Shown: positions 3,452-63,839 of the stretch, in pieces
Numbering within the stretch: position 1 is the first letter of the stretch
Layout: the number at the start of each line of letters is the position of its first letter
NCBI GenBank assembly: GCA_028686075.1
Contig: JAQUCT010000001.1
Location: 9,953 to 73,952, forward strand
Length of the DNA stretch: 64,000 bases
DNA from: Bacillota bacterium
GTDB lineage: Bacteria; Bacillota; Clostridia; Ch29
Direction: 5' to 3'
The notes under the pieces: generated by a model
Seen by the model: only the letters and a program-made list of their open reading frames with translations
Told to the model about the DNA's origin: nothing
The model's database searches: none
Program-made: the position numbers and the translations under genes

Positions 3452-3750
3452 GGTCGAAAAATAAGCTGCATGTCTTTGCAGCGTTTTAGACCTTTTTATG
3501 GAAACATTATTTATTACATATTAATACCAATAATAATTAATGTCAAGAGGTGCTTAGTCTGACAATACAATTAACGAATAGAACCATGAAACTCTGGCTG
3601 AAAAGGCTTTTGCATATCTTTTAATTTTTATGCAAAAATGGTGGAGTAAATAGGATAAAATAATTTACATCATAACAACTTATAGTAAAAAGGTGTTTTT
3701 ATACAGGTATCATTAATGCATTTGTTAGGCAAGACGACTTGCTGTACAGC

Positions 3751-4998
3751 TTACTTGTCCATATTCTTTGCGACATACAGCAATCGGTATGGGGGTGTTC
3801 CAGAAACCTTAATAGCACTTGTTCTGCTTGTCTCCCATACATCCCGTATCTTAAATGCATTTAACACATGATAGCCTAAACTGCTGAGTCTCTTTGTGAA
3901 TAAACCGGGATTAAAATATTCGATTGATTTGCTGGATACGTTAGGATGGATCTCTCTCAATGCATTTACATAAGTCTGGTTAGGCATGATTATTACTATC
4001 CCGTGGACACGGGCATTACTATTTAAATATGGTTTAATAAGTTCGGGTAAAAACGAATCCTCTGTTTCATTATGCTCGTTTGAATCTATGTAATCAACCC
4101 ATAAATCAATACTTTTTTTCTTGATAGGGTATTTGTCAGGCTTACACACAAGGAAAAGTGCTTTATGATTAAGGCCCTTTTTTTCGATTTGGGATTTATA
4201 AAACCTAATGACCTCCGGATATCTTTCCGCAATAATAAAATGGTTGTCCTCGTTAAAATATTCTATGTTTTTTAACAAGAAAAACCAGCGCTTAATATTA
4301 GTCTCAAGTATTACTTTATTATGATATTCTTTCTCGGACAGAAGATTTGATAATAGCTGTTTTTCATCTTGTTTCAATACGGTTATCGTCTTTGCATCAT
4401 ATTCTTCAAGAAGCGTATTAGATATATCGAATAATGTTGTATCGTAAATATGGGAAACCGGATCCACAAAAAGAATACCGTCTTGTATCTCAAGCCTATT
4501 CCCACAATTACATAATAATTCACCTGAAATAATCTCTCCGTTTTTAATTGTAGCACCTTTTATAACAAAATCACATTCACAGACAGGACAATTTAAAAGC
4601 TTCAAAAAAGTCAGGGGAATACCAGAAATATCTGTTGGATTACTACTAATATGCTTTGTTTCCAATATTATTTTCTTCAATCGGTCTATTGCTGTATCTA
4701 TACTGTTGCGCTGGGATACAAGGCTATTATATTTATTGCTCAGTAGTTTTACTACCTTTTTCGTTTCTCGCGGCATATTGCTGTACGAAACCCTTTCCAC
4801 TGATAAAATATCATGAATTTCCTTCAGACTAAAATACATATCTTTATAGCTTAATATCAATTTAAGCTCCTCAACATCTTTATCCGTAAAGTGATGGTGA
4901 TAGTTTTTTCGTTCAGGAACTAGAAGTCCTATCTCTATATAGTACCGAATAGTTGCAACAGAAAGACCCAGCAATTTTGAAACTTCACCTATTTTCAC
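3751..4998 (-). CDS. MerR-family HTH transcriptional regulator fused to a Cys4 zinc ribbon and an uncharacterised C-terminal domain
   Basis: N-terminal MerR HTH (KIGEVSKLLGLSVATIRYYIEIGLL), a coiled-coil segment, then CPVCEC...CNCGN zinc ribbon and about 250 aa of unknown domain. Probable start is GTG at 4998 (MKIGEV..., RBS GGTGA); the ORF track extends to 5019. The gene is very AT-rich. Confidence 0.6.
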   Translation of the reverse strand: MKIGEVSKLLGLSVATIRYYIEIGLLVPERKNYHHHFTDKDVEELKLILSYKDMYFSLKEIHDILSVERVSYSNMPRETKKVVKLLSNKYNSLVSQRNSIDTAIDRLKKIILETKHISSNPTDISGIPLTFLKLLNCPVCECDFVIKGATIKNGEIISGELLCNCGNRLEIQDGILFVDPVSHIYDTTLFDISNTLLEEYDAKTITVLKQDEKQLLSNLLSEKEYHNKVILETNIKRWFFLLKNIEYFNEDNHFIIAERYPEVIRFYKSQIEKKGLNHKALFLVCKPDKYPIKKKSIDLWVDYIDSNEHNETEDSFLPELIKPYLNSNARVHGIVIIMPNQTYVNALREIHPNVSSKSIEYFNPGLFTKRLSSLGYHVLNAFKIRDVWETSRTSAIKVSGTPPYRLLYVAKNMDK

Positions 4999-5393
4999 TA
5001 TATACTTCACCCCTTGCACAATTAATGTACGCTCTTGCCAACTTAGAGAGTTTCATAATAAATAAATATAGCCTGGGGTTAACATCTCAACCTTTTATGA
5101 TACCCTCTCACGCTTTCGCTTGCTGCATTCGCAACTCGCGATATGTATTATTATATCATAAAAATGAGCTCAATCCCAGCATTTATAAGGGTTTTGCCCC
5201 TGTTCAGCAAGCCCCTGCTTATAATACAAAACATTTCATGAAAAAGTAAAGTTAACTTGAGTTAAGTGGTAAGGATACCAATTTTACAGTATTGATCTCA
5301 AGCTGAGTTGTAAGTATATAATTCTAAGTAGGAGTAGTAGCAATTATCAATGTATAAGGTCAAAAATTATATTATGAGAGGAGACTAAGAATT

Positions 5394-6818
5394 ATGGGAA
5401 CTTTCTCGTCCGAGGCACTTTTGTTGATAATGTTAAGTACAGTTGTTGTTATCACAATCGGTGGTTTCATTGCAGTTTACTTTAAAAAAAAGACTGTGTC
5501 AAGTGAAGATTGGGCTATTGGTGGGAGAAAACTTCCGCCTTATGTAATCGTTTTTACACAGTTTGCAACTTTGGTTGGCGGAGGCGTACTCGTAGGTCAT
5601 GTTGGAATTGGGTATAATTTTGGACTTGCACCTATTATGTACGGTATATGTGGAGCTGCCGGGTGTTTTTTTATGGCGATCATAGCAAAATGGCTAAGGG
5701 AAAATGAATTTACTACTATTCCTGATATTTTGAAAAAGATTTATGGAGAAGATAACTTTTTATTGGTTTTTGCAGCTTTAATGGCAATGGTGGTTCCTTT
5801 TGGATGGATAGCCTCACAAATAACAGCATTTGGTAAATTGTATTCTTCAATAACCGGAATTGGTATGAATATTATTATTGTTGCTGTGGCATTAATATGT
5901 GTGTTGTTTACATTACCGTCAGGCTTTAACTCAGTTGCCTGGTCAGATTTTGTGTTTGGAGTTGTAATGTTAGGATTATGCGGCATAACAGCTTTCCAAG
6001 CAGTCCATATGGGAGGGGGATGGACTGATATAGTCAGTAACATACAGGACAAAACAATTATATCCTTTCCCGAAGGCCTTTTGTCTGCAGGCTTAACTAC
6101 AACGCTCCTCTGGTTTATTGCAGCAACTCCCGGAATGATGACAAACCAAATGACCCTGCAAAGAGTTTGTGCTGCAGACACAGTCAAAAATGCCCGAAGA
6201 ACATTAATAATCAGCGGAATTCTCATTGCCGCACTGGAAATTTGGGTTGTAGTTATGGGTGTATCTATCCGATCGTTAAATCCTGACTTGACAGGAGAGA
6301 TGGCGATGGGATGGTTTTTAACAACAATCCCTAAATGGACAGTCGCATTATTTGCAGGGTTTATTTCCACAACAATCATTACTACAGCCGATAGTGCTTT
6401 ACAGTCTGTTGCAGTGAATTTCACTCAAGATATCTATAAAAAACACATTAATGTGGGGGCATCAGACAAAAAATTGATGAGCGTTTCTCGAAAGGCAACG
6501 GTTATTGTAGCCATCTTGGCAATAATGTTGGCTATCGCCTTCCCAAGAGTGATGGACTTAATAATTGCCTCATATGCATATTCTGCGTCCGCATTACTTG
6601 TTCCCATTTATGCCGGCTATGCTTACAGCAAAAGAAGAACTCTTACGACAAAGGTGGGGAAGAACAGTATGATCGCGGGCCTTGTTGGATGTTTTATTGC
6701 TCAGATGCTGCACACTAGAATACCATATGCTATATATGGAATCCTAGTATCATATGTTGTTATGATAATAACAATAAAAGCTAATGAAAGTAAAAAACTC
6801 AGTACTGGAGGAAAATAA
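5394..6818 (+). CDS. Sodium:solute symporter (SSS family, PutP/PanF-like) transporter
   Basis: 474 aa, about 13 predicted TM helices, with the conserved SSS N-terminal region (DWAIGGRKLPPYV..., GGGVLVG). RBS GAGGAGA precedes ATG 5394. Confidence 0.8.
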   Translation: MGTFSSEALLLIMLSTVVVITIGGFIAVYFKKKTVSSEDWAIGGRKLPPYVIVFTQFATLVGGGVLVGHVGIGYNFGLAPIMYGICGAAGCFFMAIIAKWLRENEFTTIPDILKKIYGEDNFLLVFAALMAMVVPFGWIASQITAFGKLYSSITGIGMNIIIVAVALICVLFTLPSGFNSVAWSDFVFGVVMLGLCGITAFQAVHMGGGWTDIVSNIQDKTIISFPEGLLSAGLTTTLLWFIAATPGMMTNQMTLQRVCAADTVKNARRTLIISGILIAALEIWVVVMGVSIRSLNPDLTGEMAMGWFLTTIPKWTVALFAGFISTTIITTADSALQSVAVNFTQDIYKKHINVGASDKKLMSVSRKATVIVAILAIMLAIAFPRVMDLIIASYAYSASALLVPIYAGYAYSKRRTLTTKVGKNSMIAGLVGCFIAQMLHTRIPYAIYGILVSYVVMIITIKANESKKLSTGGK

Positions 6819-6819
6819 A

Positions 6820-7827
6820 ATGAAGACCATTCTATTGAGTGAAAAAGATATTAAAAAACTAATTACCATGCGAGAGGCTATTGATATTACCAACAAAACC
6901 TTTGCTGATTTGGGGAAAGGTAATACTCTCAACCCGACTAAGCTTAATCTTAATTTAGGTGACAGTGAACCTACTAAACTTCCCTATAAAGCGTCATTAA
7001 ACGCGATGCCTGCTTATATTGGATGGCAGGATATTGCAGGGATGAAATGGGCAGGGGGTTTCGGCAAAGGAAGGAAAGAAATTAATATGCCGTTTATCAA
7101 TGCCCTTATTTTGCTTGTCGAACCTAACTATGGTGACTTTCTTGCAGTAATGGACGGTACTTGGATAACTAAAGTGCGTACCGGAGCCCAGTCAGCGGCA
7201 ATACTCAGGTATTTATTAAAAGACAAGAAAAAAGCAACCTTTGGTATGTACGGTGCTGGGGTACAAGCCCGTACTCAGACCATGGCACTTACAAGTGAGT
7301 TCTATGTTGAAAAGCTGATTGTCTATGATCCAGTTTTAGAAGCAGCAAATAAGTTTAAGGAAGATATGAATAGTTATGTGCAAGGAGAGATAGTGATTGT
7401 GAATGAACCCAAAGATGTAGTGGAAAGTGATGCTTTCATATCCATAACTCCGGCTGACGATGCTTTTATTAAAGGAGAATGGTTATACAAGGGAAGTATT
7501 TATCTTGCCATGGGTTCGTACCAAGAATGTGATGATGTATGTATTTTAGATTCCGACATTATTATAGTTGACCACATCGGCCAGTGTCTGCATCGGGGGA
7601 ATCTCAAGAAACTCGCTGATCAAGGCAAGATTACAGAAAAAGACATATACTGCACGATCGGCGAACTTGCTGCAGGTTTAAAATCTGTCCAAAACTTAAA
7701 TGACAAAAAAACATTAATAGTCCCAATCGGTATGGGATGCCTAGATGTTGCAGTTGCGGCAGTTGCATATAGAAAAGCGTTGTCTTTAGGCGTGGGCAAT
7801 ACTTTTATGTTTGACCAAGTTGACTAG
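6820..7827 (+). CDS. Ornithine cyclodeaminase / mu-crystallin family NAD(P)-dependent enzyme
   Basis: OCD family signatures (TKVRTGA, Rossmann GMYGAGVQA); about 335 aa from ATG 6820 preceded by GGAGG. The ORF-track start at 6784 overlaps the transporter stop and is unlikely. Confidence 0.8.
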   Translation: MKTILLSEKDIKKLITMREAIDITNKTFADLGKGNTLNPTKLNLNLGDSEPTKLPYKASLNAMPAYIGWQDIAGMKWAGGFGKGRKEINMPFINALILLVEPNYGDFLAVMDGTWITKVRTGAQSAAILRYLLKDKKKATFGMYGAGVQARTQTMALTSEFYVEKLIVYDPVLEAANKFKEDMNSYVQGEIVIVNEPKDVVESDAFISITPADDAFIKGEWLYKGSIYLAMGSYQECDDVCILDSDIIIVDHIGQCLHRGNLKKLADQGKITEKDIYCTIGELAAGLKSVQNLNDKKTLIVPIGMGCLDVAVAAVAYRKALSLGVGNTFMFDQVD

Positions 7828-8098
7828 GAATAAGTTTTTTAATAGTCAGTTAGCCTTGTTAAGCTATGAAGGGTAATGACAAGCCCAGTTGCGGTTATTT
7901 AGAAATAAAGACCATACAGTAATGTGCTTTAAAGGGAGGCCCTAAGACGGAGAAAGATTTTACGCATTCGCTATAGTTGCGATGATTAAACTAGATGCGC
8001 AAAGTACTCAGAATCATTAAATCTTATATAAGGGCCATCCCTTTAAATGCACTGGCTTATGCCTTGTATGAATTCTAAAGGGAGTGGAGTGAATCTTT

Positions 8099-9172
8099 GT
8101 GGGTAAAATGATTTCAATTATTGGAGCAGGTAACGGCGGTCAAGCTTTTGCCGGATATTTGTCTTTGCAAGACTGGAAGGTTAAACTATATGACATATCA
8201 CAAGAAACAGTAGATATATTAAATAAAAAAGGCGGAATTCATATCGAAGGAAGTGCTAATGTAGAAGGTTTTGGAGAAATACTGCTTGCCAGCACCGATA
8301 TTGGTGAAGTAATTAACGGGACAAAAATAATTTTAGTTACTTTACCTTCTATATATCACAAAGAAATTGCCAGAAAAATAGCTCCATATCTAGTTGATGG
8401 GCAATTTATCATGCTCAATCCTTGTACTGCCCTCGGTGCCGTTGAATTTCGCAAAGAATTGAATGATTGTACTTGCACTGCTGATATACTTCTTGGGTGT
8501 ACATCTACTCTGTTGTTTGCCTGTCGTGCAATAGAAATAGGCCGTGTTATAGTTGCCGGGCAGAAAGCAAGCATTACTGCATCAACCTATCCTTCCTGCA
8601 ATAATGCTATTGCAGCTAAAATATTCAAAGATATAATTCCTCAGGCACAGTTTTGTGGTGACATAATACAAATTGGCCTTGATAATATTGGGGCATTGGT
8701 ACACCCCGGCCCAACCATTCTAAACACGGGCAGAATCGAATCGGGAACCGAGTTTGAATATTATTTGGATATTACTCCAACTCAAGGCTTGCTGGTTGAC
8801 AGATTGGATGAAGAACGAATGGCGATTGCCCGGGCATTTGGATTGACTGTAAAATCTTTGGTGGATATATATGAGGCATTATATCAAATTAAAGGAAAAA
8901 ATGTTTATGAAGTACTTACCGGCTGTGATGCATATAATGGTATCAAAGGGCCCACAACACTTCGTACACGTTATCTTCTGGAAGATGTGCCTTATGGTCT
9001 TTGCGCGTTTCAGACTTTGGGAATTATTGCAGGTGTACCAACTCCATGCATTGATGCATTAATTACACTGGCGAGAAAAATAATACCTGAAATGGAGGAA
9101 GGTAGAACCCCAGAAAATCTTGGACTGGAAGGCGTATCAAAAGAAGAGTTCATTAAATCATGCCGTTCCTAA
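8099..9172 (+). CDS. Opine dehydrogenase (NAD/NADP octopine/nopaline dehydrogenase family; N-(1-D-carboxyethyl)-L-norvaline dehydrogenase homologue)
   Basis: Collinear similarity to Arthrobacter opine dehydrogenase over the whole length (IIGAGNGGQAFAGYL, LNPCTALGAVEFRK, HPGPTILNTGRIESGTEFEYYLDITP, DEERMAIARAFGL, GIKGPTTLRTRYLLEDVPYGL, GVPTPCIDALI). GTG start at 8099 with GGAGTGGAG RBS; an alternative ATG lies at 8108. Confidence 0.85.
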   Translation: MGKMISIIGAGNGGQAFAGYLSLQDWKVKLYDISQETVDILNKKGGIHIEGSANVEGFGEILLASTDIGEVINGTKIILVTLPSIYHKEIARKIAPYLVDGQFIMLNPCTALGAVEFRKELNDCTCTADILLGCTSTLLFACRAIEIGRVIVAGQKASITASTYPSCNNAIAAKIFKDIIPQAQFCGDIIQIGLDNIGALVHPGPTILNTGRIESGTEFEYYLDITPTQGLLVDRLDEERMAIARAFGLTVKSLVDIYEALYQIKGKNVYEVLTGCDAYNGIKGPTTLRTRYLLEDVPYGLCAFQTLGIIAGVPTPCIDALITLARKIIPEMEEGRTPENLGLEGVSKEEFIKSCRS

Positions 9173-22258: not shown

Positions 22259-23680
22259 TCACTTCAGATAGTTTGTGGGATTGACCGGTGCGCCGAATTT
22301 CCTTACCTCAAAGTGCAGGTGGGGCCCGGTACTCCTGCCGGTGTTCCCAGACATTGCTATTGTCTGTCCTTTGTGTACCTTATCTCCCTTGGACACCAGA
22401 TTTTGCGAATTATGTCCGTAGTAGGTGGTAAATCCTTCCCCATGGTCTATTATAACCAGGTTACCATAGGTGCCCATCCTACCGGAGAATTGCACCGTGC
22501 CTCCATCCGCCGCCTTAACCGGGGTACCTATGGGGATTCCTATATCTATGCCGTTGTGCATTCGTCCCCCCCTCCGTCCGAAACCGGAGGTTATTTTCCC
22601 CCTTGCCGGATACGCAAAGGTTCCGGTACCCTGCCTTGGGGGCGGCGGCTTCGTGCCTACGGCAACCATCCTTGTAACCGGGTCCTTTATAACCTTTTCG
22701 TCCAATATTTCCCGGCCGGCCTCTGTGCCGTTTTCCCTTATTATCCTGGCGGTAATTTTCCTCTCGCCGTACCTTCCAGATATTTTTACTATCGATTCTC
22801 CCTTGTAGAACTCACTACTTTCCCTGTACTCGGTATCATAGGGTATATTCTCCTTGAGGGTGACTATTTCCTCGGTAACCACCGTTACAAAGGGTTTGGG
22901 TACAATCATGCTGAGCTGCTGCCCAATCTGCAGCTTTTTGGGGTCCACCTCGGGGTTCGCTTTTTCCAGGTCCTCTACAGTAATGTTGTGGTTTCGGGAT
23001 ATTCCCCAAAGGCTGTCCCCCCTGGAAACGGTATACACTTTACTCTCGATGGTACCGTTTAACAGGTATTTATAGGCATCCTCCGGGTCCATTATATCCT
23101 CAGGTTCTACCGGGCTGTCAACAAGCTCCACCCTTTCCTTTATGTCTATACCACAGAGGTCCACATCCTGCTCCTTCTGAGCAAAGACCTCCTTTACCCT
23201 TTCAAGAAGGTTCTGGGCCTTATCCATACCTACAACCGATAATACGGGTCTTCCGTCAATACAGAGGGTGATTGCTTTTTTTCTCAATTCAATATTTCTT
23301 TCAAGTTCTTTTTTTAGGCTTTCCTCATCCAATATGTTGTCTAACCTTTTATCTATTTTAATCTTTTTCACATTAAGTTCTGCAGTCAATACAAGGCCAT
23401 CGTCCCCCGCCAGAATTTCATCGTCCAGACGGTCCAGCACTTCCATGGCCATTTCTTGCTCCTTCACAATTCCTATGGGGGTACCGTTTAAGGATACCAT
23501 ATACCCGGTGCGGGATATCTCCGTATAAGCGTATACTGCTGCCAGCAGTACCACAATACAAACAACGGTTACAACAGCTTTTTTCTTCCCATGACCCGTC
23601 TTTTCTAAAAATCGTGCAACAAACTCCCTTACATGGTTTTCGTTAGACGGTTTATCCATTGTTCGTCCCCTTTCCTCCAT
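22259..23680 (-). CDS. Membrane-anchored LysM-domain M23 family peptidoglycan metalloendopeptidase
   Basis: N-terminal TM, LysM (YTVSRGDSLWGISRNHNITVEDLEKANP) and M23 core (HNGIDIG...GNLVIIDHGEGFTTYYGHNS...GPHLHFEV). Alternative start at 23659. Confidence 0.8.
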   Translation of the reverse strand: MEERGRTMDKPSNENHVREFVARFLEKTGHGKKKAVVTVVCIVVLLAAVYAYTEISRTGYMVSLNGTPIGIVKEQEMAMEVLDRLDDEILAGDDGLVLTAELNVKKIKIDKRLDNILDEESLKKELERNIELRKKAITLCIDGRPVLSVVGMDKAQNLLERVKEVFAQKEQDVDLCGIDIKERVELVDSPVEPEDIMDPEDAYKYLLNGTIESKVYTVSRGDSLWGISRNHNITVEDLEKANPEVDPKKLQIGQQLSMIVPKPFVTVVTEEIVTLKENIPYDTEYRESSEFYKGESIVKISGRYGERKITARIIRENGTEAGREILDEKVIKDPVTRMVAVGTKPPPPRQGTGTFAYPARGKITSGFGRRGGRMHNGIDIGIPIGTPVKAADGGTVQFSGRMGTYGNLVIIDHGEGFTTYYGHNSQNLVSKGDKVHKGQTIAMSGNTGRSTGPHLHFEVRKFGAPVNPTNYLK

Positions 23681-50711: not shown

Positions 50712-51434
50712 TCAGCTTAAAGGCTTTTTCGCTGGTCTTCCTGCTTTTCTTGGGTATTCCGACCCGGTGGCTGTTAACTTTTCTATTATTATTATATAAT
50801 GGGTAATATCTGTAAAGGGCAGGCGGAAGTCCCGGACCTGGGACATACACCCCCCTAAAATGCCTATTGCCCTATCGGCTTGGTCTATCTCTTCAATATA
50901 TCCTGGCCCTTTCATCGCAAGAAAAACTCCCCCTGTTTCAACGAAGGGCAGACAGTATTCCGATACCACCGACATATGAGCCACCGCCCTGGAAAAGCAC
51001 AGCTGATACTTTTCCCTGTGCGCTACATCCCTTGCTAATTCCTCAGCCCTTCCGTGGATGGGAACAGCACCCTTTAGTCCTAGCCTCGCAATCACACACT
51101 CCAGGAACACTACCCTTTTTTTAAGAGAATCCAGTAGCGTAATTTCCAGGTCGGGATACATTATTTTTAAAGGAATTCCGGGAAACCCGGCCCCCGTTCC
51201 CACATCAATAGCTTTAAGTCCATCGTTCACATATCCTGTTGCGGCACAGGTAATGGAATCAAGAAAGTGCTTTATAATAACGTCCCGATCTTCGGTAATT
51301 GCGGTAAGGTTCATTCTTTTGTTCCAATCGGTCAGCATCCTCATATATTCCATCAGTTGGTCAACCTGTTCTCCTGTAACTGTAACCCCCAGTCCGTGTG
51401 CCCCTTTTTTTAAAAGCTCCACACCCACTTTCAT
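50712..51434 (-). CDS. rsmG: 16S rRNA (guanine527-N7)-methyltransferase RsmG (GidB)
   Basis: SAM-binding motif ([16 protein letters not shown]), 240 aa, position downstream of mnmG. Confidence 0.9.
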
Positions 51435-53320
51435 TTCCTTTCCGCCCTTCTTCTCTGTTCGAGGTATACCATAAGTACCGATATATCCGCCGGCGAAACC
51501 CCTGTTATCCTTGAAGCATGGCCTATTGAATCCGGTTTAATCCCGTCTAGTTTCTCCTGGGCCTCCCGCCTCAATCCCTTTATTCCGAAATAATTGATAT
51601 CCGGGTTAAGCTTTTTACCCTCCATCCTTTTAAATTGCTCCACCTGGATAAGCTGTTTTTTGATATAGCCTTCATATTTAATTTCCGTTTCCACCTGTTT
51701 ACCTATGGCCCTCGGCAGGGTCGGCCTTTCCTTATCCAGCACCCCAAGGCTTTCATAGTCGATTTCTGGACGCTTTAAAAGCTCGTACAAGCTTATCCCT
51801 GATTTTATCTCCGAGCTTTCCCTTTCCCTCAAAAAAGCGTTTATTTCCTCTAAAGGGGATACAACCATACTTTTAAGCCTTTTTATTTCCCGTCGGAGTT
51901 TTTGCTGTTTATCTATGAATTTTGCGTACCTTTCTTCGGTAACCAGTCCTATATCATAACCTTTTTGGGTTAACCGGCCATCGGCATTGTCCTGCCTTAG
52001 TATAAGCCTGTATTCCGCCCTCGAGGTCATTATCCTATAGGGCTCCCGGGTTCCCTTTGTAACCAGATCATCTATCAGCACGCCTATATAGGCCTCAGAC
52101 CGGTCAAGTATTACCGGCTTTTGTCCCCTTATTTTTCTAACCGCATTGATTCCCGCCATTATACCCTGGGCCGCCGCCTCCTCGTATCCTGAGCTGCCGT
52201 TTATCTGACCGGCACAGAACAGTCCGTTTATCCCCTTGCACTCCAGCGACAAATTAAGTTGCGTTGGGTCAATACAGTCATATTCTATTGCATAGGCGGT
52301 CCTCATTATATTTACCTTTTCCAACCCCTTTATTGACCGGTAAAACTTCACCTGGACGTCCTCCGGAAGGCTGGTGGACATGCCCTGTACATACATCTCT
52401 TTTGTATCCCTTCCTTCCGGCTCGATAAAAAGCTGGTGTGACTGCTTGTCCGGGAAAACGGTGAGTTTGCTCTCTATCGAAGGACAGTACCTTACCCCAA
52501 CGCCTGTTATTTCCCCTCCGTACAGTGCTGACCTTTCTATATTTTCCATCACTATCCTGTGGGTATCCTCGTTGGTATACCCCAGCCAACAGGAAATCTG
52601 TTCCCGATCCAGGTTTTCGAACTCGTTCAGAAAGGAAAAGGGAACAATATCCCGATCTCCCCTTTGCTCGATCAAAACTGAATAATCAATAGAATCCCTG
52701 TGTACTCTGGCCGGTGTCCCCGTTTTAAACCTCATAAGCTTAAGCCCCGCCTTTTCCAGGTTTCCGGAGAGTTCATTCGCGGCAAAAAGGCCGTAAGGAC
52801 CACCTTCATAGCTAATTTTCCCTATGTGGATTTTGCCCTTTAGATACACTCCTGTGGTAAGTATAACGGCTTTTGCCCTGAAGATCGCCCCGTTCTTGGT
52901 TTTTATACCTCTGCATTCGTCCTGCTCAACAATTATGTCAGTTACCTCGTCCTGCTTAATATCCAGATTGGGCTGGCTTTCTAGGGTCCTTTTCATTTCG
53001 GACTGGTAGTCTGTTTTATCAGCCTGGGCTCTCAGCGAATGAACTGCCGGACCCTTTCCGGTGTTTAGCATTTTTATCTGTATGAAGGTCTTATCTATCA
53101 GTACCCCCATTTCCCCTCCCAGAGCGTCTATCTCCCTCACCAAATGTCCCTTGCCAGTACCCCCTATGGCTGGATTACAGGCCATGAGTGCTATACTATC
53201 AAGATTAAGGGTAACCACCAGGGTCTTGCAGCCCAGCCTTGCGGCGGCAAGGCTCGCTTCACACCCCGCATGCCCGGCACCCACCACTATTACATCATAG
53301 TCTCCTGCGTAATACTCCAT
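51431..53320 (-). CDS. mnmG: tRNA uridine 5-carboxymethylaminomethyl modification enzyme MnmG (GidA)
   Basis: FAD-binding N-terminus [14 protein letters not shown], 629 aa, overlaps rsmG start by 4 nt. Confidence 0.92.
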
Positions 53321-53330
53321 TATACCCCTC

Positions 53331-54722
53331 CTACTTGCCTATGCAGAAGTCCTCAAATATCCTGTCCACAATGTCCTCGGTTATATTGTCCCCGGTTATT
53401 TCCCCCAAGGCTTCCAGGGCTGCCTTTATATCTATCGAAACAAGGTCTATCGGCAGGCCGTTTCCCATTGCCTTTATTGCATCCTCAAGGCTCCTTTTGG
53501 CCCTCCTAAGACAGTCCGCGTGCCTTACCCTGGTAACCATAACTGCATCCCCGCTTGTTATGCCGTCCGAAAATACCAAATTATATATGGTATCCTCAAG
53601 GACATCTAGTCCCATATCCTTTATAAGGGACATGTGTATCACCGGCCATTCATGGTATTTTTTAGTAATTTCCTCTACGTTTAGCTTTATTTCCAGGTCG
53701 GTTTTGTTTATTAACACTATGGCCCTTTTATCCTTAATTATATCCAGTATTTTCCTGTCATCCTGTGAAAGGGGCCTTGCGGCGTCCAGCATTAGCAGCA
53801 CCAAGTCGGCATTTTCCATATATTCCCTAGTTTTTTCAACTCCTATACTTTCCACCAGGTCGTCGGTTTCCCTGATACCCGCCGTATCCATTAACCTTAG
53901 CGGAATACCTTTTAAGTTTATGTACTCCTCTATTACATCCCTGGTGGTCCCCGGTACTTCGGTAACTATCGCCCTGTTCTCCCTAAGCAGCGCATTAAGA
54001 AGGGAGGACTTGCCCACGTTAGGCTTTCCTATAATTGCCGTTTTAAGACCCTCCCGTACTATCCTGCCTCCGGAGGACGTTGACAAAAGCCTTTCCACCA
54101 TATCCTCCGCCTGCCGGGTATCCATAAGCAGTACCTCCCTGGTCTGTTCCTCTATGTCATGTTCGGGGAAATCTATCGAAGCTTCCACTCCGGCCATTAC
54201 CGACAAAAGTTTATCTTTTATTTCATCCAAATACCGGGACAGTCTTCCCTCAAGCTGGCTTACAGCAGTCTTTAAGCCCATCTCAGATTTCGAATGAATA
54301 ATATCCATAACCGCCTCTGCCTGGGACAGGTCAAGTCTTCCGTTTATGAAGGCCCTTTTGGTAAACTCCCCCGGCTCCGCCACCCTTGCTCCAAGGTCTA
54401 CAATTATCTCCAGTATCTTTCTCACCGCCGCGTTTCCACCATGACAGTGAATTTCGACAACGTCTTCCCTCGTATACGTATGCGGTGCTTTCATTGTAGC
54501 CACCAAAACCTCATCAATTATTTCCCCGCTATCGGGATTATATATATGGCCATAGTTCATCCTTCTGCCCGGCAGCTCCTCCAGAGGCTTGCCGGATACC
54601 GCCCTGAAGGCCCTGGCCGCAATCCTTTTCGCCTCGGGACCGCTTATACGCACTATCCCAATGCCGCTTTCCCCCGGGGCAGTGGCTATTGCGGTAATTG
54701 TATCCCCTTCCCTTATTATCAT
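53331..54722 (-). CDS. mnmE: tRNA modification GTPase MnmE (TrmE)
   Basis: N-terminal TIAAIATAPG motif, G-domain ([12 protein letters not shown]), C-terminal CIGK. ATG at 54722 has RBS GAGGTGGTG; the ORF-track N-terminal extension is unsupported. Confidence 0.92.
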
Positions 54723-54839
54723 AGCGCACCACCTCAAATGTATTATACCACTTTCATTATTACCATTGACTGTTTCAATTACTCTTTTAAATGGACTGAA
54801 AAATTTAAAGCAGGTGCATAGCACCTGCTGACAGTTGGT

Positions 54840-55472
54840 CTATCTTAAGCTTACTATTACCTTTCTGTACGGTTCTTCACCTTCACTGTGAGTTGCAACC
54901 CTGTCATCGCCTTGCAATGCGGAATGTATTACCCTTCTTTCATAGGGGTTCATGGGTTCTAAAGCTATATCCTTTCCTATCCTTACCGCCTTATATGCAA
55001 TGTTCTTTGCCAGCTGTATCAGAGTTTCCTCTCTTTTCTTTCTGTAATTCTCGGTGTCCACAATAACACGGTAATAATGCTCAGGATATTTCCTGTTAAC
55101 CACAAGACCCGTTATATACTGTATGGAATCTAAGGTCTGGCCCCTTCTTCCTATCAAAACTCCCATATTGGGCCCCTTAAATTCCGCCCGTATAACGCTG
55201 CCCTCTTCCGGTTTAACCATCACCCTACCCTCAACGCCCATTACATCAAGCAGTTTTTCTAGGAATTCCTTTGCCACATCGGCAGGCGTTACTTTAAGTG
55301 TAACCATAACCTTTCCCGGTTTATTATTAATAAGCCCCAGTAGGCCCTTTTCCGGCTCTTCAAGTATGTCAATCTTGACATCGTTTAAGTCAACACCAAG
55401 TTCTTCTATAGCCAGTTGAACCGCTTCCTGAATCGTCTTGCCCGTTTTTACAACAGTTTTTCCAGTCGTCAA
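54840..55472 (-). CDS. jag: Jag (SpoIIIJ-associated KH/R3H RNA-binding protein)
   Basis: KH and R3H domains (...IHSALQGDDRVATHSEGEEPYRKVIV), 4-nt overlap with yidC. Confidence 0.85.
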   Translation of the reverse strand: MTTGKTVVKTGKTIQEAVQLAIEELGVDLNDVKIDILEEPEKGLLGLINNKPGKVMVTLKVTPADVAKEFLEKLLDVMGVEGRVMVKPEEGSVIRAEFKGPNMGVLIGRRGQTLDSIQYITGLVVNRKYPEHYYRVIVDTENYRKKREETLIQLAKNIAYKAVRIGKDIALEPMNPYERRVIHSALQGDDRVATHSEGEEPYRKVIVSLR

Positions 55473-56161
55473 TTGGATTCCTCCTTAACCGTCCCTCCCC
55501 GGCCCAAACCAAAATACTGCTGCACTATCTGGAATGTATTACTCAGCACCCAATACAGAGTAACTCCGGCGGGAAAACTGAAACTAAAGTACCCAATCAT
55601 GAGGGGCATTATTGTGTTCATGGTGTTCTGAGTGCCCTCAACGTTTTTGGGCGTCACCATCTTTGACTGATAATAAGTGGTACCGGCTGCTAGTATCGGC
55701 AATATCCACTTAATTGGATCTTTATAGTCCTTTAATAAACTTCCTGTTGCCGACAGGTCTTTTATCCATAAAAAACTCTTTCCAACGGCATCATAGGTCT
55801 CGGGAGTAAATACATATGTTTCAGGTAGCCTTAAAACCTGGAATAATGCAAACAGTATAGGAAGCTGTAGTAACAGGGGCAGACAACCGCTGGTAAAAGG
55901 GTTCGCGTTGTGCTGCCTGTACAGCTCCATTGTCTTTTCATTGAGCTTTTGTTTATCGTGGCCATACTTCTTCTGCAGTGCCTTAATCTTCGGATTAAGC
56001 TCCTGCATCTGTTTCATGGACTTTGTCTGTTTAATAGTAAGTGGCATGAGAATGAGTTTTACCAATATTGTAAATATTACTATGGAAAGCCCATAACTGT
56101 TGACCAGGCTATATATATAAAATAGCAGCTTTCCCAAAGGTACAGCAATTGCGTTAAACAT
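55469..56161 (-). CDS. yidC: Membrane protein insertase YidC/OxaA (SpoIIIJ-type)
   Basis: Five TM helices, conserved YidC core, 230 aa. Confidence 0.88.
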   Translation of the reverse strand: MFNAIAVPLGKLLFYIYSLVNSYGLSIVIFTILVKLILMPLTIKQTKSMKQMQELNPKIKALQKKYGHDKQKLNEKTMELYRQHNANPFTSGCLPLLLQLPILFALFQVLRLPETYVFTPETYDAVGKSFLWIKDLSATGSLLKDYKDPIKWILPILAAGTTYYQSKMVTPKNVEGTQNTMNTIMPLMIGYFSFSFPAGVTLYWVLSNTFQIVQQYFGLGRGGTVKEESN

Positions 56162-56182
56162 TTTTCTCCCCCTAATCTGTGG

Positions 56183-56392
56183 TTATTTTACGGGGTCATA
56201 CCCTCCCGGATGGAACGGATGACACTTCAGTATCCTTTTACCAGCCATGAACGTCCCCTTTATTGCTCCATACTTGTCTATGGCTTGAATTGCATATTCT
56301 GAACAGGTCGGATAGAACCTGCACTTTCCTGTCTTAATGGGTGAAATAAACGTTCTATATAAATTTATAATAAAAATGAATACCCTTTTCAT
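56183..56392 (-). CDS. yidD: Membrane protein insertion efficiency factor YidD
   Basis: 69 aa, conserved FYPTCSEYA motif. Confidence 0.85.
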
Positions 56393-56739
56393 TTCAACCC
56401 TTCTTTTTCTGCGAGTTTATGCCTTATTAGTAAATCCGCCATCCACTTTTCTATGTCTTTATATCCCGCCTCTTTTGCCTGTACCCGGGCTATAAATACC
56501 AGGTCATAGCCCTTTGTAATCCTCCCGGAATACCTCCTGTATGTTTCCTTAATAAGTCTTTTAATTCTGTTTCTTACAACGCTCTTTCCGACTTTTCTGC
56601 TAACACTTACGCCGATTCTGTTATACTCTTTCCCGTTTTGAATCACATACATTACCAATACGGGATTGGCCTTACTGCTGCCTCTATTATAGACTTTTGA
56701 GAATTCTTTGCTTTTTCTTATAGAAATTAAATCCGCCAT
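56389..56739 (-). CDS. rnpA: Ribonuclease P protein component RnpA
   Basis: RNR motif ([12 protein letters not shown]); start ATG 56739 (MADLISIRK); an alternative upstream ATG at 56769 has no RBS. Confidence 0.88.
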
Positions 56740-56911
56740 AGGAACCCTTCTTTTGAACTGTTCCCGCATTCAAAATAGGTCTATATAGGTCTATTATTGA
56801 TTCATTATTCCTATAGAACGCACATAGAACAGTATAAATACTTAATCCGTGTTCTGACAGCTATTTTTCCCTCCCCGAAAAAATGTATAAAAAGGCCCCC
56901 TGATAGCGGCC

Positions 56912-57046
56912 TTATGCTGTCAACCTCTTTCTTCCCTTTCTTCTTCTTCTTTTTAACACCCTTCTTCCGGTGCTTGTTTTCATCCTCTTCCTGAAACCAT
57001 GTTCCTTCTTTCTCTGCCTTTTTTTAGGCTGATAAGTCATTTTCAT
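56912..57046 (-). CDS. rpmH: 50S ribosomal protein L34
   Basis: Minus-strand translation [44 protein letters not shown] (44 aa); not in the ORF track because it is under 60 aa. Confidence 0.92.
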
Positions 57047-57139
57047 AGGTCACACCCCCTCTTCCTTGTTTGGGCTTTTAGAGCATATCCCCCCGAATTA
57101 TATATAGATTATAGCCCTATTGAATATTTGTGTCAAGAA

Positions 57140-57410
57140 AATGAAATTGTGGATAATGCAAAAATCGGTGTTATTTTTTGTGGATATGTTGCCGATAATT
57201 ATTGATAACACCGGAATAATTTGTTATCATAAAATAGCATCTTCAGATGCCCGGGGCGATATCCGTAATTATACTAAAATCCTTTATCTGTAGCAATATA
57301 AGGATTACAACCGATAGCTCCGGTACATATAGAAACGGTTCTTATCTTTGTTTATTAATTACCCGGGGGATGAAAAATATTCCTAATCAATGTGGATATT
57401 TGTGGGGACA
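57140..57410. other. oriC upstream module: DnaA-box cluster between rpmH and dnaA
   Basis: TGTGGATAA (57148..57156, perfect), TGTGGATAT (57179..57187), TGTGGATAT (57391..57399), TGTGGGGAC (57401..57409), plus weaker TTATCTGTA/TTATCTTTG boxes, all in an AT-rich spacer. Confidence 0.75.
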
Positions 57411-57432
57411 ACCTATATAAGGAGGCAATACA

Positions 57433-58776
57433 ATGCAGAACGATACGACATCCGTTTGGGAGGATACTCTAAGGCTTATAAAGGACGAGCTGGCGGAGGT
57501 AAGTTTCAATACCTGGTTTAAGGTTACCCAGTTGGTTGAGATTGCCGACGAGAACATAATACTATGTGCCCCTAACGAATTTATAAAGAATATTCTCGAA
57601 ACCCGTTACATAACGCTTATATTCAACGCCTTGGAACAGGTGACTTCCAGGCAGTACGACATACGAATTATTCTACAGGAGGAAAGTAATTCCAAAACCC
57701 ATGACCGCAACAGTAAAAAACAAAGCGGTGAGAGAGATACTCTTAATTCCGATTTGGGTATATTAAATCCGAAATATACATTTGATACCTTTGTAATAGG
57801 AAACAGCAACCGGTTTGCCCATGCCGCCTCGCTGGCGGTTTCCGAGGCACCCGCGAAGTCCTATAACCCACTTTTTATATACGGCGGGGTGGGCCTTGGC
57901 AAAACTCACCTTATGCATGCCATAGGACACTATATACTGAGAAATAATCCAAGAACCCGGGTCGTTTATAGCACCTCGGAGAAATTTACAAACGACCTTA
58001 TTAACTCGATTAGGGATGATAAAAACGTAGAATTCAGAAATCGGTACAGGACCACCGACGTCCTGCTTGTGGACGATATACAGTTTATCGCTGATAAAGA
58101 AAGGACTCAGGAGGAATTTTTCCATACCTTTAATTCGCTGTACGAGTCCAGCAAGCAGATAATTATATCCAGCGACCGGCCTCCGAAGGAAATACCTACC
58201 CTCGAGGACAGGCTCAGGTCAAGGTTTGAGTGGGGCCTTATATGCGATATTCAGCCCCCGGATTTTGAGACCCGTATAGCCATACTCAAGAAAAAAGCAA
58301 ATCTTGAGAATATATCCACTCCCGACGAGGTACTTGTATTTATTGCAAAAAAAATAGAATCAAACATCCGGGAGCTAGAGGGAGCCCTTATTAGGGTCGT
58401 TGCCTATTCATCGCTCACGAACAGGGATATAAATATGGACCTTACCCGGGAAGCCCTTAAGGATTTCTTTTCAAATTCCAAGCCCAAGCCGGTTACGGTG
58501 GATTTGATAAAGCGGGTTATATCCGAATACTATTCTATTAAAATAGAGGACTTTACCTCTAAAAAACGCACCCGGGCAATCGCTTTCCCGCGGCAAGTGG
58601 CTATGTACCTGACCAGGGAACTGACCGACCTTTCACTGCCAAAGATAGGGGATGAATTCGGCGGAAGGGACCATACGACCGTACTGCACGCCTACGATAA
58701 GATTTCCACGGAGCTAAAAAGTGATGAATCCCTTAAAATTGCCATGGGTGAAATACAAAGAAAGCTTAATGGTTAA
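57433..58776 (+). CDS. dnaA: Chromosomal replication initiator protein DnaA
   Basis: AAA+ Walker [11 protein letters not shown], sensor and domain IV HTH (…[12 protein letters not shown]…), 447 aa, RBS AGGAGG. Confidence 0.95.
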
Positions 58777-58797
58777 AACCCCTTTTCTTGGGGATAT

Positions 58798-59012
58798 CCG
58801 GTTGATAACCGGTTGATAACCTGTTAAGTAATCTATATGGAATAAATAACCATAGGCATAATGTGTATAGTGTGGAAAAGGATACACCGATTAATAACAA
58901 TCGGTCAACAGATGAATGCGTTTGTCCCGCTGCAGTCCGGACACTTTTCCACATATCAACACCCCCTACTACTATTACTACTATATATTTATATATTTAT
59001 ATATAAAAAACT
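58798..59012. other. oriC downstream module with DnaA boxes and AT-rich DNA unwinding element
   Basis: Tandem ccggTTGATAACC repeat (58798..58822), inverted pair TGTGGAAAA (58871..58879) / TTTTCCACA (58945..58953), then the 100 percent AT tract atatatttatatatttatatataaaaaa (58983..59010) immediately upstream of dnaN. Confidence 0.7.
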
Positions 59013-59032
59013 TGGTTTTGGAGGTTATTCAC

Positions 59033-60136
59033 ATGAAACTTATTTGTACCAGAGATGAATTACTGGAAGGAATACTTATAGCTCAAAAAGCGGTACCCAC
59101 AAGGACCACCCTTCCAATACTTCAGGGTATACTGCTGGACTGCAGGGACGAATCCCTGAATTTGCGGGCTACAGACCTTGAGATAGGAATAGAGTGCAGT
59201 GTTAATGCCGAGATAGTGGACAGGGGCTGGCTTGTGCTTGATTCAAGGCTTTTGGGGGAGATTGTAAGGAAACTTCCTCCCGAGGACGTTGAAATATCCG
59301 TGGCCGAGGGCAATATAACCGAGATTAAGTGTGCAAACTCTTTTTTTCGTCTGCAGGGACAAAGCGGTGAAGAGTTTCCGCAGCTGCCGCAGGTGGACGG
59401 TGAAAGAAGCCTTACTATGCCCCAGGACCTGCTAAAGAGTGTAATAAGACAGGTGGTTTTTGCCTGCGCTGTGGAGGAAACAAGGCCAATACTGACGGGT
59501 GCGCTGGTGGAATGCAGATCGGAAGATATGGTCATGGCCGCCCTTGACGGATTCAGGCTTGCGGTAAGAAACGTAAAGCTCGAAGGTGTCCGGGAGGATA
59601 TCTGTGCGGTTGTACCTGCCAAGGCCTTAAATGAGATACAAAGGATTTTGAAGGATACTCAGGAGGAGGTTCACATCAAGCTGGCCGGTAACCATATTCT
59701 GTTTGGCATGGAAAGGACAAGGGTCATTTCAAGGCTTTTGGAGGGCGATTTTATAAACTATAAGCAGATTATTCCGGAGGAATACGGTACCCGTATACGG
59801 CTTAAAAATGAAGAACTGCTTGAGAGCTGTGAAAGGGCTTCTTTGCTGGCCAGGGAAGGCAGTAATAATCTTATTAAGTTAAACATAACAAAGAATCAGC
59901 TGGAGATTACTTCAAACGCTGAAATTGGGGATGTGCGGGAGGAAATTTTATCAGAAACCGAGGGACAGGATTTAGAGATTGCATTTAATTCCAAGTACCT
60001 TACCGATGTTTTGAAGGTAATAGAGGATGAATATTTACGGATTGAATTTACAACCAGTATAAGCCCATGCATAATTAAACCTGAGGGCAGTGAAGACTAT
60101 ACCTATCTGTTGCTGCCGGTAAGGGTTATATCCTAA
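59033..60136 (+). CDS. dnaN: DNA polymerase III beta sliding clamp DnaN
   Basis: MKLICTRDELLEGIL... three-domain clamp; ATG 59033 follows GGAGG. The ORF-track extension back to 58916 reads through the DUE. Confidence 0.93.
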   Translation: MKLICTRDELLEGILIAQKAVPTRTTLPILQGILLDCRDESLNLRATDLEIGIECSVNAEIVDRGWLVLDSRLLGEIVRKLPPEDVEISVAEGNITEIKCANSFFRLQGQSGEEFPQLPQVDGERSLTMPQDLLKSVIRQVVFACAVEETRPILTGALVECRSEDMVMAALDGFRLAVRNVKLEGVREDICAVVPAKALNEIQRILKDTQEEVHIKLAGNHILFGMERTRVISRLLEGDFINYKQIIPEEYGTRIRLKNEELLESCERASLLAREGSNNLIKLNITKNQLEITSNAEIGDVREEILSETEGQDLEIAFNSKYLTDVLKVIEDEYLRIEFTTSISPCIIKPEGSEDYTYLLLPVRVIS

Positions 60137-60178
60137 AATAAGCGACAGTGAAATGGATGGTATGCGGGAGATGGTGAT

Positions 60179-60397
60179 GTGGAAAAACTACTTATAAAAG
60201 GGGACTATATAACCCTCGGCCAACTTCTCAAACTGTCTGGTATCGTCCAAACGGGCGGCCAGGCAAAATTTATGATTGCGGACGGAAGGGTTAGGATAAA
60301 TGGCCGTCTAGTCCTTCAAAGGGGTAAAAAGGTTTACCCCGGGGATATAGTGGGTTTAGACGGTAGCGACGTCATGGAAGTGAAGTCCGGGGAGTAG
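60179..60397 (+). CDS. yaaA: S4-domain RNA-binding protein YaaA
   Basis: 72 aa S4 fold (…GQLLKLSGIVQTGGQAKFMIADGRVRINGR…), GTG start with GGGAG RBS; conserved between dnaN and recF. Confidence 0.8.
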   Translation: MEKLLIKGDYITLGQLLKLSGIVQTGGQAKFMIADGRVRINGRLVLQRGKKVYPGDIVGLDGSDVMEVKSGE

Positions 60398-60436
60398 GGG
60401 TAAAAAACCGATGATTGCCTGATTGGAGTGGATGGG

Positions 60437-61549: not shown

Positions 61550-61576
61550 CCGGCCCGTTGTCAGGAGGAGATAAAA

Positions 61577-61834
61577 ATGTTTTTACACTTGGGTAAAAAT
61601 GTTATAATACACCTCGGGGATGTAATAGCGGTAATAGACCTATGCTCAGTATCCGAAGCAAAGGATACCGGCGAGTTTATAAGAATAGCCGATGAGGAAG
61701 GTTTTGTAAGGAGAATAGGCAAAGACAAGCCCAAGTCGATGGTTATTTGCGAAAAGGCTGTTTATTTTTCCCCCATATCTTCATCAACTTTGAGCAGGAG
61801 AGCGAGCTTTATGCATAATATTTCTATGTTATAG
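61577..61834 (+). CDS. DUF370 family protein (YaaB/RemB-like)
   Basis: 85 aa; conserved position between recF and gyrB in Firmicutes. Confidence 0.7.
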   Translation: MFLHLGKNVIIHLGDVIAVIDLCSVSEAKDTGEFIRIADEEGFVRRIGKDKPKSMVICEKAVYFSPISSSTLSRRASFMHNISML

Positions 61835-61904
61835 CATTCATAAGTGCCGGCTCTGGGGATTCCTAGAGCCTTTTTTTAAAAAAAGAACTATACAATATAA
61901 TTAA

Positions 61905-63827
<1,923 letters not shown>

Positions 63828-63839
63828 GGGGGAAAGAAC

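Follow-up and report, generated by a model that had tools for sequence, protein, structure and literature searches.

A horizontally acquired island in a Bacillota species joins an opine dehydrogenase and an ornithine cyclodeaminase-family enzyme to a symporter and a MerR-family regulator: a candidate system for the import and cleavage of opine-type compounds

A stretch of 64,000 nucleotides from a Clostridia genome (Bacillota bacterium, GTDB lineage Ch29; GenBank assembly GCA_028686075.1, contig JAQUCT010000001.1, forward-strand positions 9,953 to 73,952; henceforth the window) carries an island of four genes, in which a predicted NAD(P)-dependent opine dehydrogenase (ODH) is combined with an enzyme of the ornithine cyclodeaminase/mu-crystallin family (called OCD here after its family), a sodium:solute symporter (SSS) and a MerR-family regulator. 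We propose, with about even confidence, that this island would serve to take up, on induction, an opine-type compound, by which we mean an N-(1-carboxyalkyl) amino acid, an iminodiacid or an N-alkyl amino acid, and to cleave it oxidatively with NAD(P)+. The observations themselves concern gene content, conservation and residue patterns, from which all the biochemical steps are inferred. The ORF map shows a divergent regulator gene on the minus strand followed by the SSS, OCD and ODH genes, in that order, on the plus strand:

Positions 3452 to 9172, genes on both strands: the four-gene island, between the dlt operon/transglutaminase-like gene and htrA-yycJ-murA-yycIH-walK.
Positions 3751 to 5019, minus strand: MerR-family regulator of 422 residues (PF13411; 6.8e-17, 61.8 bits).
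Positions 5292 to 5322, plus strand: promoter-like site, TTGATC-19 nt-TATAAT, facing the SSS gene (motif scan).
Positions 5394 to 6818, plus strand: SSS of 474 residues, the presumed substrate importer (PF00474).
Positions 6820 to 7827, plus strand: predicted NAD(P) amine/imine dehydrogenase of the OCD/mu-crystallin family, 335 residues (PF02423).
Positions 7913 to 8070, plus strand: long hairpin in the OCD-ODH spacer, with arms at 7924-7942 and 8033-8051 (minimum free energy -51.1 kcal/mol, z = -4.56).
Positions 8099 to 9172, plus strand: predicted NAD(P)-dependent ODH of 357 residues, resembling N-(1-D-carboxyethyl)-L-norvaline dehydrogenase (CENDH), identified by PF02317, a match to 1bg6 and its catalytic residues.

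Profile searches agree with the family assignments made in a sequence-only reading of the window, which had pointed to a dedicated regulator and a Na+/solute symporter next to the two enzymes. The ODH matches the Octopine_DH profile (PF02317; 3e-40, 138 bits, cutoff 30), with PF01210 and PF02558 matching its N-terminal Rossmann domain. A phmmer search of the PDB aligned its residues 3-347 with the Arthrobacter CENDH (1bg6; E 3e-73; 39.7% identity across 343 columns), and the blockwise correspondence with this enzyme claimed earlier holds throughout: the GAGNGG (9-14), HPGPT (202-206) and ESGT (214-217) segments are all present, as is the C-terminal helical domain. In the alignment H202, R291 and D296 line up with H212, R324 and D329 of OcDH, which constitute the catalytic His-Asp dyad and the Arg 'sensor' (PMC2924402; PMC10787698). 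R291 and D296 are kept in all 134 ODH relatives and H202 in 133 of them, across every genomic context. The loss of catalytic residues, raised beforehand as a finding that would speak against the assignment, was not observed, and the protein is a true member of the opine-dehydrogenase family with a predicted activity of this kind. Mutagenesis of the Arthrobacter enzyme (also called ArODH) has established that its positions 111 and 198 jointly set the amino-acid preference, with the pair A/N favoring hydrophobic and R/G acidic amino acids (PMC10787698). The A/N pair, which goes with the ArODH-like specificity for neutral or hydrophobic L-amino acids, recurs in 112 of the 120 closest ODH homologues; in its place the window ODH has T110/G198, a combination found only in this protein and its 99% identical twin. 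With both specificity residues changed, the window ODH probably accepts another amino-acid moiety than its relatives do.

The OCD gene begins 1 nt after the SSS stop codon, and the N-termini of homologues (MxTLLLS) place its start at the ATG at 6820 and not at 6784. The product matches PF02423 over residues 2-322 (4e-42, 144.7 bits, cutoff 24). Among solved structures its best matches are the A. fulgidus alanine dehydrogenase (AfAlaDH, 1omo; 4e-41), a delta1-pyrroline-2-carboxylate (Pyr2C) reductase (6t3e; 2e-38) and SbnB (4e-25), with weaker ones to mu-crystallin (CRYM; 7e-22) and the P. putida ornithine cyclodeaminase (1u7h; E 0.25). It falls far below the cutoffs of all NCBIfam equivalogs of the family, of which the archaeal alanine dehydrogenase comes closest (TIGR02371; 182 bits versus 409); the SbnB family model TIGR03944 gives 138 bits against a cutoff of 327, and no SbnA-like gene for a pyridoxal phosphate (PLP) enzyme is present within the island. 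The cyclization of ornithine to proline had been one of the activities suggested for this protein, and it is contradicted by the active site. Asp228 of the P. putida enzyme (equivalent to Asp219 of AfAlaDH) is important at each step of the cyclodeamination (PMC4141209). The Asp of this G-x-D motif is missing from the window OCD, its place being taken by a 3-residue gap or Ser233 ('MGS---YQECDD' versus 'IGADGPGKQELD'). The curated cyclodeaminase models are likewise far from their cutoffs (PRK07589, 43 bits versus 350; PRK06407, 75 bits versus 337). These features, together with the E-value of the 1u7h match, lead us to conclude that, judged by its sequence, the window "OCD" is not an ornithine cyclodeaminase. 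The OCD/CRYM superfamily also includes alanine and N-methylalanine dehydrogenases, Pyr2C reductases and SbnB, as well as the sponge tauropine and strombine dehydrogenases (PMC4141209), and the two sponge enzymes are themselves opine dehydrogenases. Within the clade of the window OCD, K41, K76 and R120, which are presumed to bind a carboxylate, are invariant, as are G232, Y234 and E236 of a GSYQE motif; the clade also carries a conserved insertion of its own at residues ~46-56.

A metagenome scan with a profile of this OCD clade recovered 80 loci, 42 of which had at least 1.5 kb on either side and were informative for the counts that follow. An ODH gene accompanies the OCD in 29 of the 42. In the near clade (at least 60% OCD identity) an orthologous SSS (56-66% identity) is found in 12/12 loci and an ODH in 7/12, with 6 of these ODHs lying no more than 200 nt away, while the five loci without an ODH have a long MerR-type regulator instead. 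In the deeper clade (47-59% OCD identity) an ODH occurs in 22/30 loci, and the typical module reads DctQ-DctM-ODH-SDH-OCD(-OCD)-DctP with a GntR regulator. The culturable Lutispora saccharofermentans has the order TRAP-ODH-SDH-OCD-OCD (L093). A TRAP system with a DctP binding protein functions in import. The SDH is a fused iron-sulfur L-serine ammonia-lyase, i.e., an L-serine dehydratase (alpha part 278.6 bits versus an equivalog cutoff of 243.2, beta part just below its own), which sits between the ODH and the OCD in many of the TRAP modules. A genome scan with an ODH profile, in which the GTDB representatives scanned exclude the host species, returned 79 loci; the best ODH match among these representatives was 64% identical. 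The close ODH relatives (52-65%) come from Sedimentibacter, Paraclostridium bifermentans, Pyramidobacter, Anaerotignum, Oscillospiraceae and Lachnospiraceae, and their cassettes are minimal, with a GntR/FCD or other regulator, an SSS or TRAP system and one to three tandem ODHs. Culturable carriers include P. bifermentans, with the order SSS-ODH-ODH-GntR (L002), and Anaerotignum propionicum, whose ODH is 61% identical. No OCD gene adjoins any of these close relatives, and no biosynthetic genes were seen in their cassettes. ODHs of the window's clade nearly always adjoin an SSS of the same family, and EamA-type transporters are present in several related cassettes. A bona fide alanine dehydrogenase (TIGR00518, 511-515 bits, cutoff 392) lies inside cassettes of the window ODH clade at two loci (L008:4553-5662 and L014:1676-2788; loci are given by their scan numbers), and another classical enzyme above this cutoff occurs at L171:9665-10603. 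The association of ODH and OCD is real and recurrent, and it is a property of this OCD clade rather than of the ODH family at large. The functional link between the two enzymes that had been suggested from their adjacency thus finds support in these loci.

The window cassette itself is, by the sequence relationships of its parts, a mosaic. Its regulator (36-41% identity), SSS and OCD (64-75%) are orthologous to those of MerR-SSS-OCD and SSS-OCD-ODH cassettes; the SSS in particular is 57-68% identical to those of SSS-OCD(-ODH) cassettes versus 36-40% to those of most SSS-ODH cassettes. The ODHs of these OCD cassettes are merely 34-39% identical to the window ODH, even at L180, where the OCDs share 75% identity. 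The window ODH groups with the importer-linked, OCD-free ODH clade, pointing to an ODH of a different clade having replaced the usual OCD-linked one. Further ODH clades adjoin this OCD clade at L118, L122 and L170. ODHs of at least three clades hence occur beside a single OCD clade, a pattern better explained by functional coupling than by common descent, and this repeated, independent joining is the strongest evidence here for a joint function of the two predicted enzymes.

Several other gene associations were observed in these scans. Genes of the GrdE/GrdB type (selenoprotein B) are contiguous with TRAP-ODH-SDH-OCD modules at L121, L125, L130-L132, L139, L165 and L174; they are closest to the sarcosine reductase GrdG/GrdF, far below the cutoff, which suggests that a glycine-type or N-substituted-glycine product is reduced in these modules. 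A gene of the enolase superfamily lies directly upstream of the ODH or SSS-ODH at L009, L024, L027, L028, L030, L035, L037, L038 and L050, and after the ODH-SSS at L053. The best models for the L009 protein are the muconate cycloisomerase subfamily and, second, cis-3-hydroxy-L-proline dehydratase, both sub-threshold; such a neighbor could act as a dehydratase, or it could epimerize opines. A separate ODH clade (L041-L079, e.g., L064:10001-12756) is found in Thermoanaerobacterales, Tissierellia, Tepidanaerobacter and [Clostridium] ultunense, with the ODH directly followed by a 550-aa protein that has an N-terminal B12-binding domain and is otherwise unassigned; the ODHs preceding this protein have the R111/G198 pair in 24/24 cases. 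In human-gut contigs (L098-L102), a sigma-54 activator, a PALP-family PLP enzyme, RidA and a ~490-aa membrane protein (a putative NhaC-type transporter judged from its sequence, with no family search run) are encoded 3' of SSS-OCD-ODH, and these downstream genes could form a further amino-acid deamination unit. A cassette with a sugar-diacid-type regulator, an SSS and an ODH is carried by plasmid p1 of Cytobacillus firmus (L183; NZ_CP107028.1, 383 kb), an aerobic Bacillus relative, so the combination of regulator, importer and ODH is not confined to anaerobes. Related cassettes as a whole are common in gut and digester Clostridia.

The SSS is a clear member of its family (PF00474; 2.7e-32, 112.6 bits, cutoff 22.8) and falls far below the cutoffs of the PutP, PanF and ActP equivalogs (PutP, 93 bits versus 515), PanF and PutP being the best named, sub-threshold models. 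The regulator displays a MerR helix-turn-helix, a coiled coil, a CxxC...CxC zinc ribbon with a Trm112-like match and a methyltransferase-like domain. This C-terminal domain of ~230 residues has no match in Pfam; its AF2 model (pLDDT 68, moderate) adopts a class-I methyltransferase fold, with RlmA(I) as the top Foldseek match (1p91; 8e-10) followed by SAM methyltransferases, and the Gly-rich SAM loop was not found in the sequence. The CueR, ZntR and Zn-responsive PRK09514 models give 38-44 bits against cutoffs of 143-168. This protein is accordingly not a metal-sensing MerR by its sequence, the short metal loop of the latter being replaced by a 290-aa part made up of the zinc ribbon and the methyltransferase-like domain. 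Around 340 cluster representatives, nearly all of ~410 residues, share the sensor region (residues ~130-422), a family size that was obtained by exhaustive search, where a word-index search had given 3 matches; the regulator thereby adds to the MerR proteins a sizeable family bearing a methyltransferase-like sensor domain. Its orthologues (36-41% identical) are encoded divergently to SSS-OCD or OCD at L091/92, L100, L103-104 and L107-112.

An over-long promoter spacer is a hallmark of activation by MerR proteins. The pattern TTGAY-19 nt-TATAAT occurs 2 times in the window versus 0.12 expected, and TTGAYN-19 nt-TATAAT is present in 7/7 orthologous regulator-SSS/OCD intergenic regions examined. 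These observations point to positions 5292-5322 as a putative MerR-type promoter that is conserved across the orthologous cassettes. The other TTGAY-19 nt-TATAAT site of the window, at 23091-23121 on the minus strand, could be a second promoter of this type. The OCD-ODH spacer is 271 nt long in the window versus 16-164 nt at other loci, and it contains no promoter-like or terminator-like site. The arm of its hairpin is single-copy within the window, and homologues of the hairpin occur only as identical copies in contigs of the same species; none of the island spacers matches a riboswitch or other known RNA in Rfam at E<=1. The hairpin may be a leader, a processing element or a recombination scar where the foreign ODH joined.

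The composition of the four genes sets them apart from their surroundings. Their GC content at third codon positions (GC3) is 0.33 for the regulator and the SSS, 0.36 for the OCD and 0.27 for the ODH, versus 0.54-0.58 for eight flanking genes, and in the GC profile the island is the strongest low-GC stretch of the first 56 kb of the window. It occupies the same chromosomal site, at 99-100% identity, in three NCBI 'Bacillota bacterium' metagenome-assembled genomes (MAGs) and several JGI/Logan contigs, the flanking context being identical in all of them. No integrase, tRNA or flanking repeats were found in the island or at its borders, and a plasmid origin was rejected, the ODHs encoded on plasmids being at most 35% identical. 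By these sequence criteria the four genes are a horizontally acquired accessory island that has become fixed in one Bacillota species. The low GC3 relative to the flanks and the single insertion site make this an accessory island and not a housekeeping proline/ornithine pair; it was such a pair, found in all relatives, that the sequence-only reading had considered damaging to its proposal. The origin of replication lies elsewhere in the window: the region ~51000-64000 includes mnmG, mnmE, dnaA (57433-58776), dnaN and gyrB, with a change in the sign of the GC skew and a flip in gene orientation near 57 kb, placing the island ~50 kb from oriC.

Under the proposed mechanism, the regulator would sense the compound or a product of it via the methyltransferase-like domain and activate the promoter with the 19-nt spacer at 5292-5322, and the SSS would take up the compound together with Na+. 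The ODH would use NAD(P)+ to oxidize the bond between the nitrogen and the D-configured carboxyalkyl carbon. The products would be an L-amino acid and a 2-oxo acid, the latter most likely pyruvate. The OCD would act as a second NAD(P)-dependent amine dehydrogenase, for which there are two options: it might convert the freed L-amino acid to a 2-oxo acid and NH4+ in the manner of AfAlaDH, or it might oxidize an L-configured secondary-amine bond beyond the reach of the ODH, as would befit a relative of SbnB and of the strombine and tauropine dehydrogenases. The net effect would be the channeling of carbon and nitrogen into central metabolism as pyruvate-type acids and ammonia, with neither O2 nor flavin oxidases. 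The catabolic direction is supported by the presence of importers, by regulators of the catabolic type and by the alanine dehydrogenase and L-serine dehydratase encoded in related cassettes, two enzymes that yield pyruvate from small amino acids. The sequence-only reading had left uptake with catabolism and synthesis side by side; the SSS and TRAP importers, the GntR regulators and the two pyruvate-forming enzymes favor the former, with synthesis becoming a minority possibility.

Several observations weigh against this proposal. ODH equilibria favor opine synthesis, and EamA-type exporters are found in several related cassettes. The absence of an ODH from 5/12 near-clade cassettes (MerR-SSS-OCD) implies that the OCD and SSS can function alone, and in the window the ODH, which was acquired separately, is parted from the OCD by the 271-nt spacer with its strong hairpin. 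The coexistence of an OCD with a classical alanine dehydrogenase at L171 means that the OCD there is not simply an alanine dehydrogenase, which weakens its interpretation as a plain substitute for that enzyme. The sub-threshold likeness of some enolase-family neighbors to cis-3-hydroxyproline dehydratase hints at cyclic imine chemistry in those ODH clades. Finally, the substrate of the cassette is given at the level of a class, and the activities of its enzymes are predicted ones.

In one alternative, the island would serve cyclic imino-acid metabolism, with the OCD as a delta1-pyrroline-2-carboxylate/piperideine-2-carboxylate reductase, the ODH acting on a cyclic imine or imino acid (e.g., oxidizing a D-imino acid) and the SSS importing proline-, hydroxyproline- or pipecolate-type compounds. 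A Pyr2C reductase is the second-best solved relative of the OCD, and enzymes of the TlLhpI type share with it the lack of the catalytic Asp (PMC4141209). PanF and PutP are the best named models for the SSS, and the SDH-OCD pairs recall the dehydratase/imine-reductase logic of BhcB/BhcD and LhpH/LhpI. The enolase-family neighbor of some ODHs has cis-3-hydroxyproline dehydratase as its second-best model. However, the island has no gene for a dehydratase, racemase or proline reductase, the SSS is far from the PutP cutoff, and the ODH shares 40% identity with an enzyme that condenses acyclic amino acids with pyruvate, all of whose active-site residues it keeps. The alanine dehydrogenase and L-serine dehydratase of related cassettes likewise indicate acyclic small amino acids, and we consider a cyclic substrate unlikely.

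We give a comparably low probability to the mere juxtaposition of two unrelated functions, whereby a MerR-SSS-OCD unit for uptake and dehydrogenation would have been joined by an independently acquired ODH with its own substrate and served by another transporter. The ODH-free MerR-SSS-OCD cassettes (L100, L103-104, L107-112) show that such a unit exists by itself, and the long hairpin-bearing spacer, the different clade of the ODH and its GC3, the lowest in the island, would all fit a separate arrival. Against this, several ODH clades have independently come to adjoin this OCD clade, the spacer contains neither a terminator-like nor a promoter-like site, ODHs of the window's clade almost always adjoin an SSS of the same family, and all four genes have the foreign composition and the insertion site in common.

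A reversal of the pathway appears improbable: the ODH would join pyruvate to an amino acid by reductive condensation, with the OCD working as an alanine dehydrogenase in the direction of amination, and the product would bind metals, act as an osmolyte or serve as a sink for NADH, all under stress-type MerR control. Besides the equilibria and the EamA exporters mentioned above, this is favored by the opines being fermentation end products of invertebrates and by the frequent response of MerR regulators to stress. AfAlaDH, moreover, catalyzes amination far more efficiently than deamination (PMC4141209). Yet the island encodes an importer but not an exporter, and lacks nicotianamine-synthase-like and racemase genes; its relatives have TRAP importers, GntR/FCD regulators of the catabolic type and the irreversible L-serine dehydratase alongside, and its patchy, accessory distribution is typical of nutrient-scavenging islands.

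An Agrobacterium-like route, in which the ODH would cleave an arginine or ornithine opine (of the octopine or carboxyethyl-ornithine type) and a true cyclodeaminase would turn ornithine into proline for Stickland reduction, matches in its family names and in the known use of ornithine cyclodeaminase by Clostridia (PMC4141209 cites C. sporogenes), but it is very improbable in light of the missing Asp228 equivalent, the poor scores against the P. putida enzyme and the two PRK models, and the lack of an arginase or proline reductase gene in the island.

Tentatively, and with the odds against it, the combination of ODH, this OCD clade and SSS or TRAP importers might form a widespread, O2-independent and hitherto unrecognized route for harvesting N-carboxyalkyl amino acids. 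It would be used by Clostridia of guts and digesters, by Synergistetes and by bacteria related to them, and its sources would be microbial, invertebrate or plant opines or carboxyethyl and carboxymethyl amino acids derived from the diet. Two unrelated NAD-dependent enzymes would then attack stereochemically different C-N bonds, with the products feeding a Grd-type selenoprotein reductase in some lineages and with the MerR/pseudo-methyltransferase protein as a new ligand sensor in the lineage of the window. Carboxymethyl-lysine (CML), a substrate prompted by the Oscillibacter and Pyramidobacter hosts, was retained only as one of many candidates: the searched literature holds no link between ODHs and CML. 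Cloacibacillus keeps the carboxymethyl group.

NAD-dependent ODHs are known as synthases in invertebrate muscle, crown gall and metallophore pathways and from one aerobic soil isolate, and the searched literature describes no role for them in strict anaerobes. If the cassettes are catabolic, they would point to a nutrient niche based on secondary-amine dicarboxylates for abundant gut and digester bacteria, and they would supply candidate enzymes for the degradation of dietary N-carboxyalkyl amino acids; the interest would rise if a dietary or host-derived substrate were found. The specificity variants A/N, R/G and T/G also constitute a natural set for biocatalytic reductive amination.

Comparison with known systems brings out what is shared and what is particular to the island. 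Database names for these proteins are generic, and in the searched literature PF02317 enzymes are connected neither with partners of the OCD family nor with importers of the SSS or TRAP type, nor with anaerobic Firmicutes. The hot-spring mODHs (PMC10787698) are, like the window ODH, bacterial, ~40% identical to ArODH and endowed with Gly198; in them G198 goes together with R111 and with a preference for acidic amino acids, whereas in the window ODH its partner is Thr. The staphylopine and pseudopaline clusters (CntKLM) also use a PF02317 opine dehydrogenase (CntM), but the island has an SSS importer in place of nicotianamine-synthase-like CntL, a CntK-type racemase, an exporter or metal-uptake genes. 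The sequence-only reading had seen a distinct arrangement here, and this is right insofar as the staphylopine-type partners are absent; it is not a unique one, related cassettes being widespread. Of the amine-acting OCD relatives, which comprise the A. fulgidus alanine dehydrogenase, LhpI of T. litoralis (a Pyr2C reductase, alanine dehydrogenase and N-methyl-alanine dehydrogenase), SbnB and the sponge tauropine and strombine dehydrogenases, TlLhpI and also CRYM resemble the window OCD in having no Asp at the cyclodeaminase position (PMC4141209). The window OCD conserves the presumed carboxylate-binding Lys/Lys/Arg positions of these relatives and misses every equivalog cutoff, and its clade is linked to SSS/TRAP importers and ODH genes, a linkage that has not been described for AfAlaDH, LhpI, SbnB or the sponge enzymes.

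The closest parallels in logic are two catabolic systems. In octopine and nopaline catabolism of Agrobacterium, as proposed for the island, an opine is imported, its C-N bond is split and the freed amino acid passes to an OCD-family enzyme. Agrobacterium cleaves the bond by the membrane-associated flavin oxidases OoxAB/NoxAB (PMC4575208), whereas the island has an NAD-dependent ODH and neither flavin opine oxidase subunits nor an ABC opine permease; the ABC importer, arginase and true cyclodeaminase with the catalytic Asp of Agrobacterium contrast with the SSS and the OCD without this Asp. With CENDH/ArODH of Arthrobacter sp. 1C (1bg6), the window ODH has in common the family, the full-length fold, the Rossmann loop, the His-Asp dyad and the Arg, while differing in its specificity residues (A111/N198 versus T110/G198). 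Its gene is accompanied by those of an importer, an OCD-family enzyme and a regulator, and its host is a Firmicute that is presumably anaerobic. The source bacterium of ArODH grows on secondary-amine dicarboxylates, which likewise points to a catabolic role. The component families of the island are thus known ones, and the logic of the cassette resembles that of Agrobacterium opine catabolism and of the Arthrobacter CENDH.

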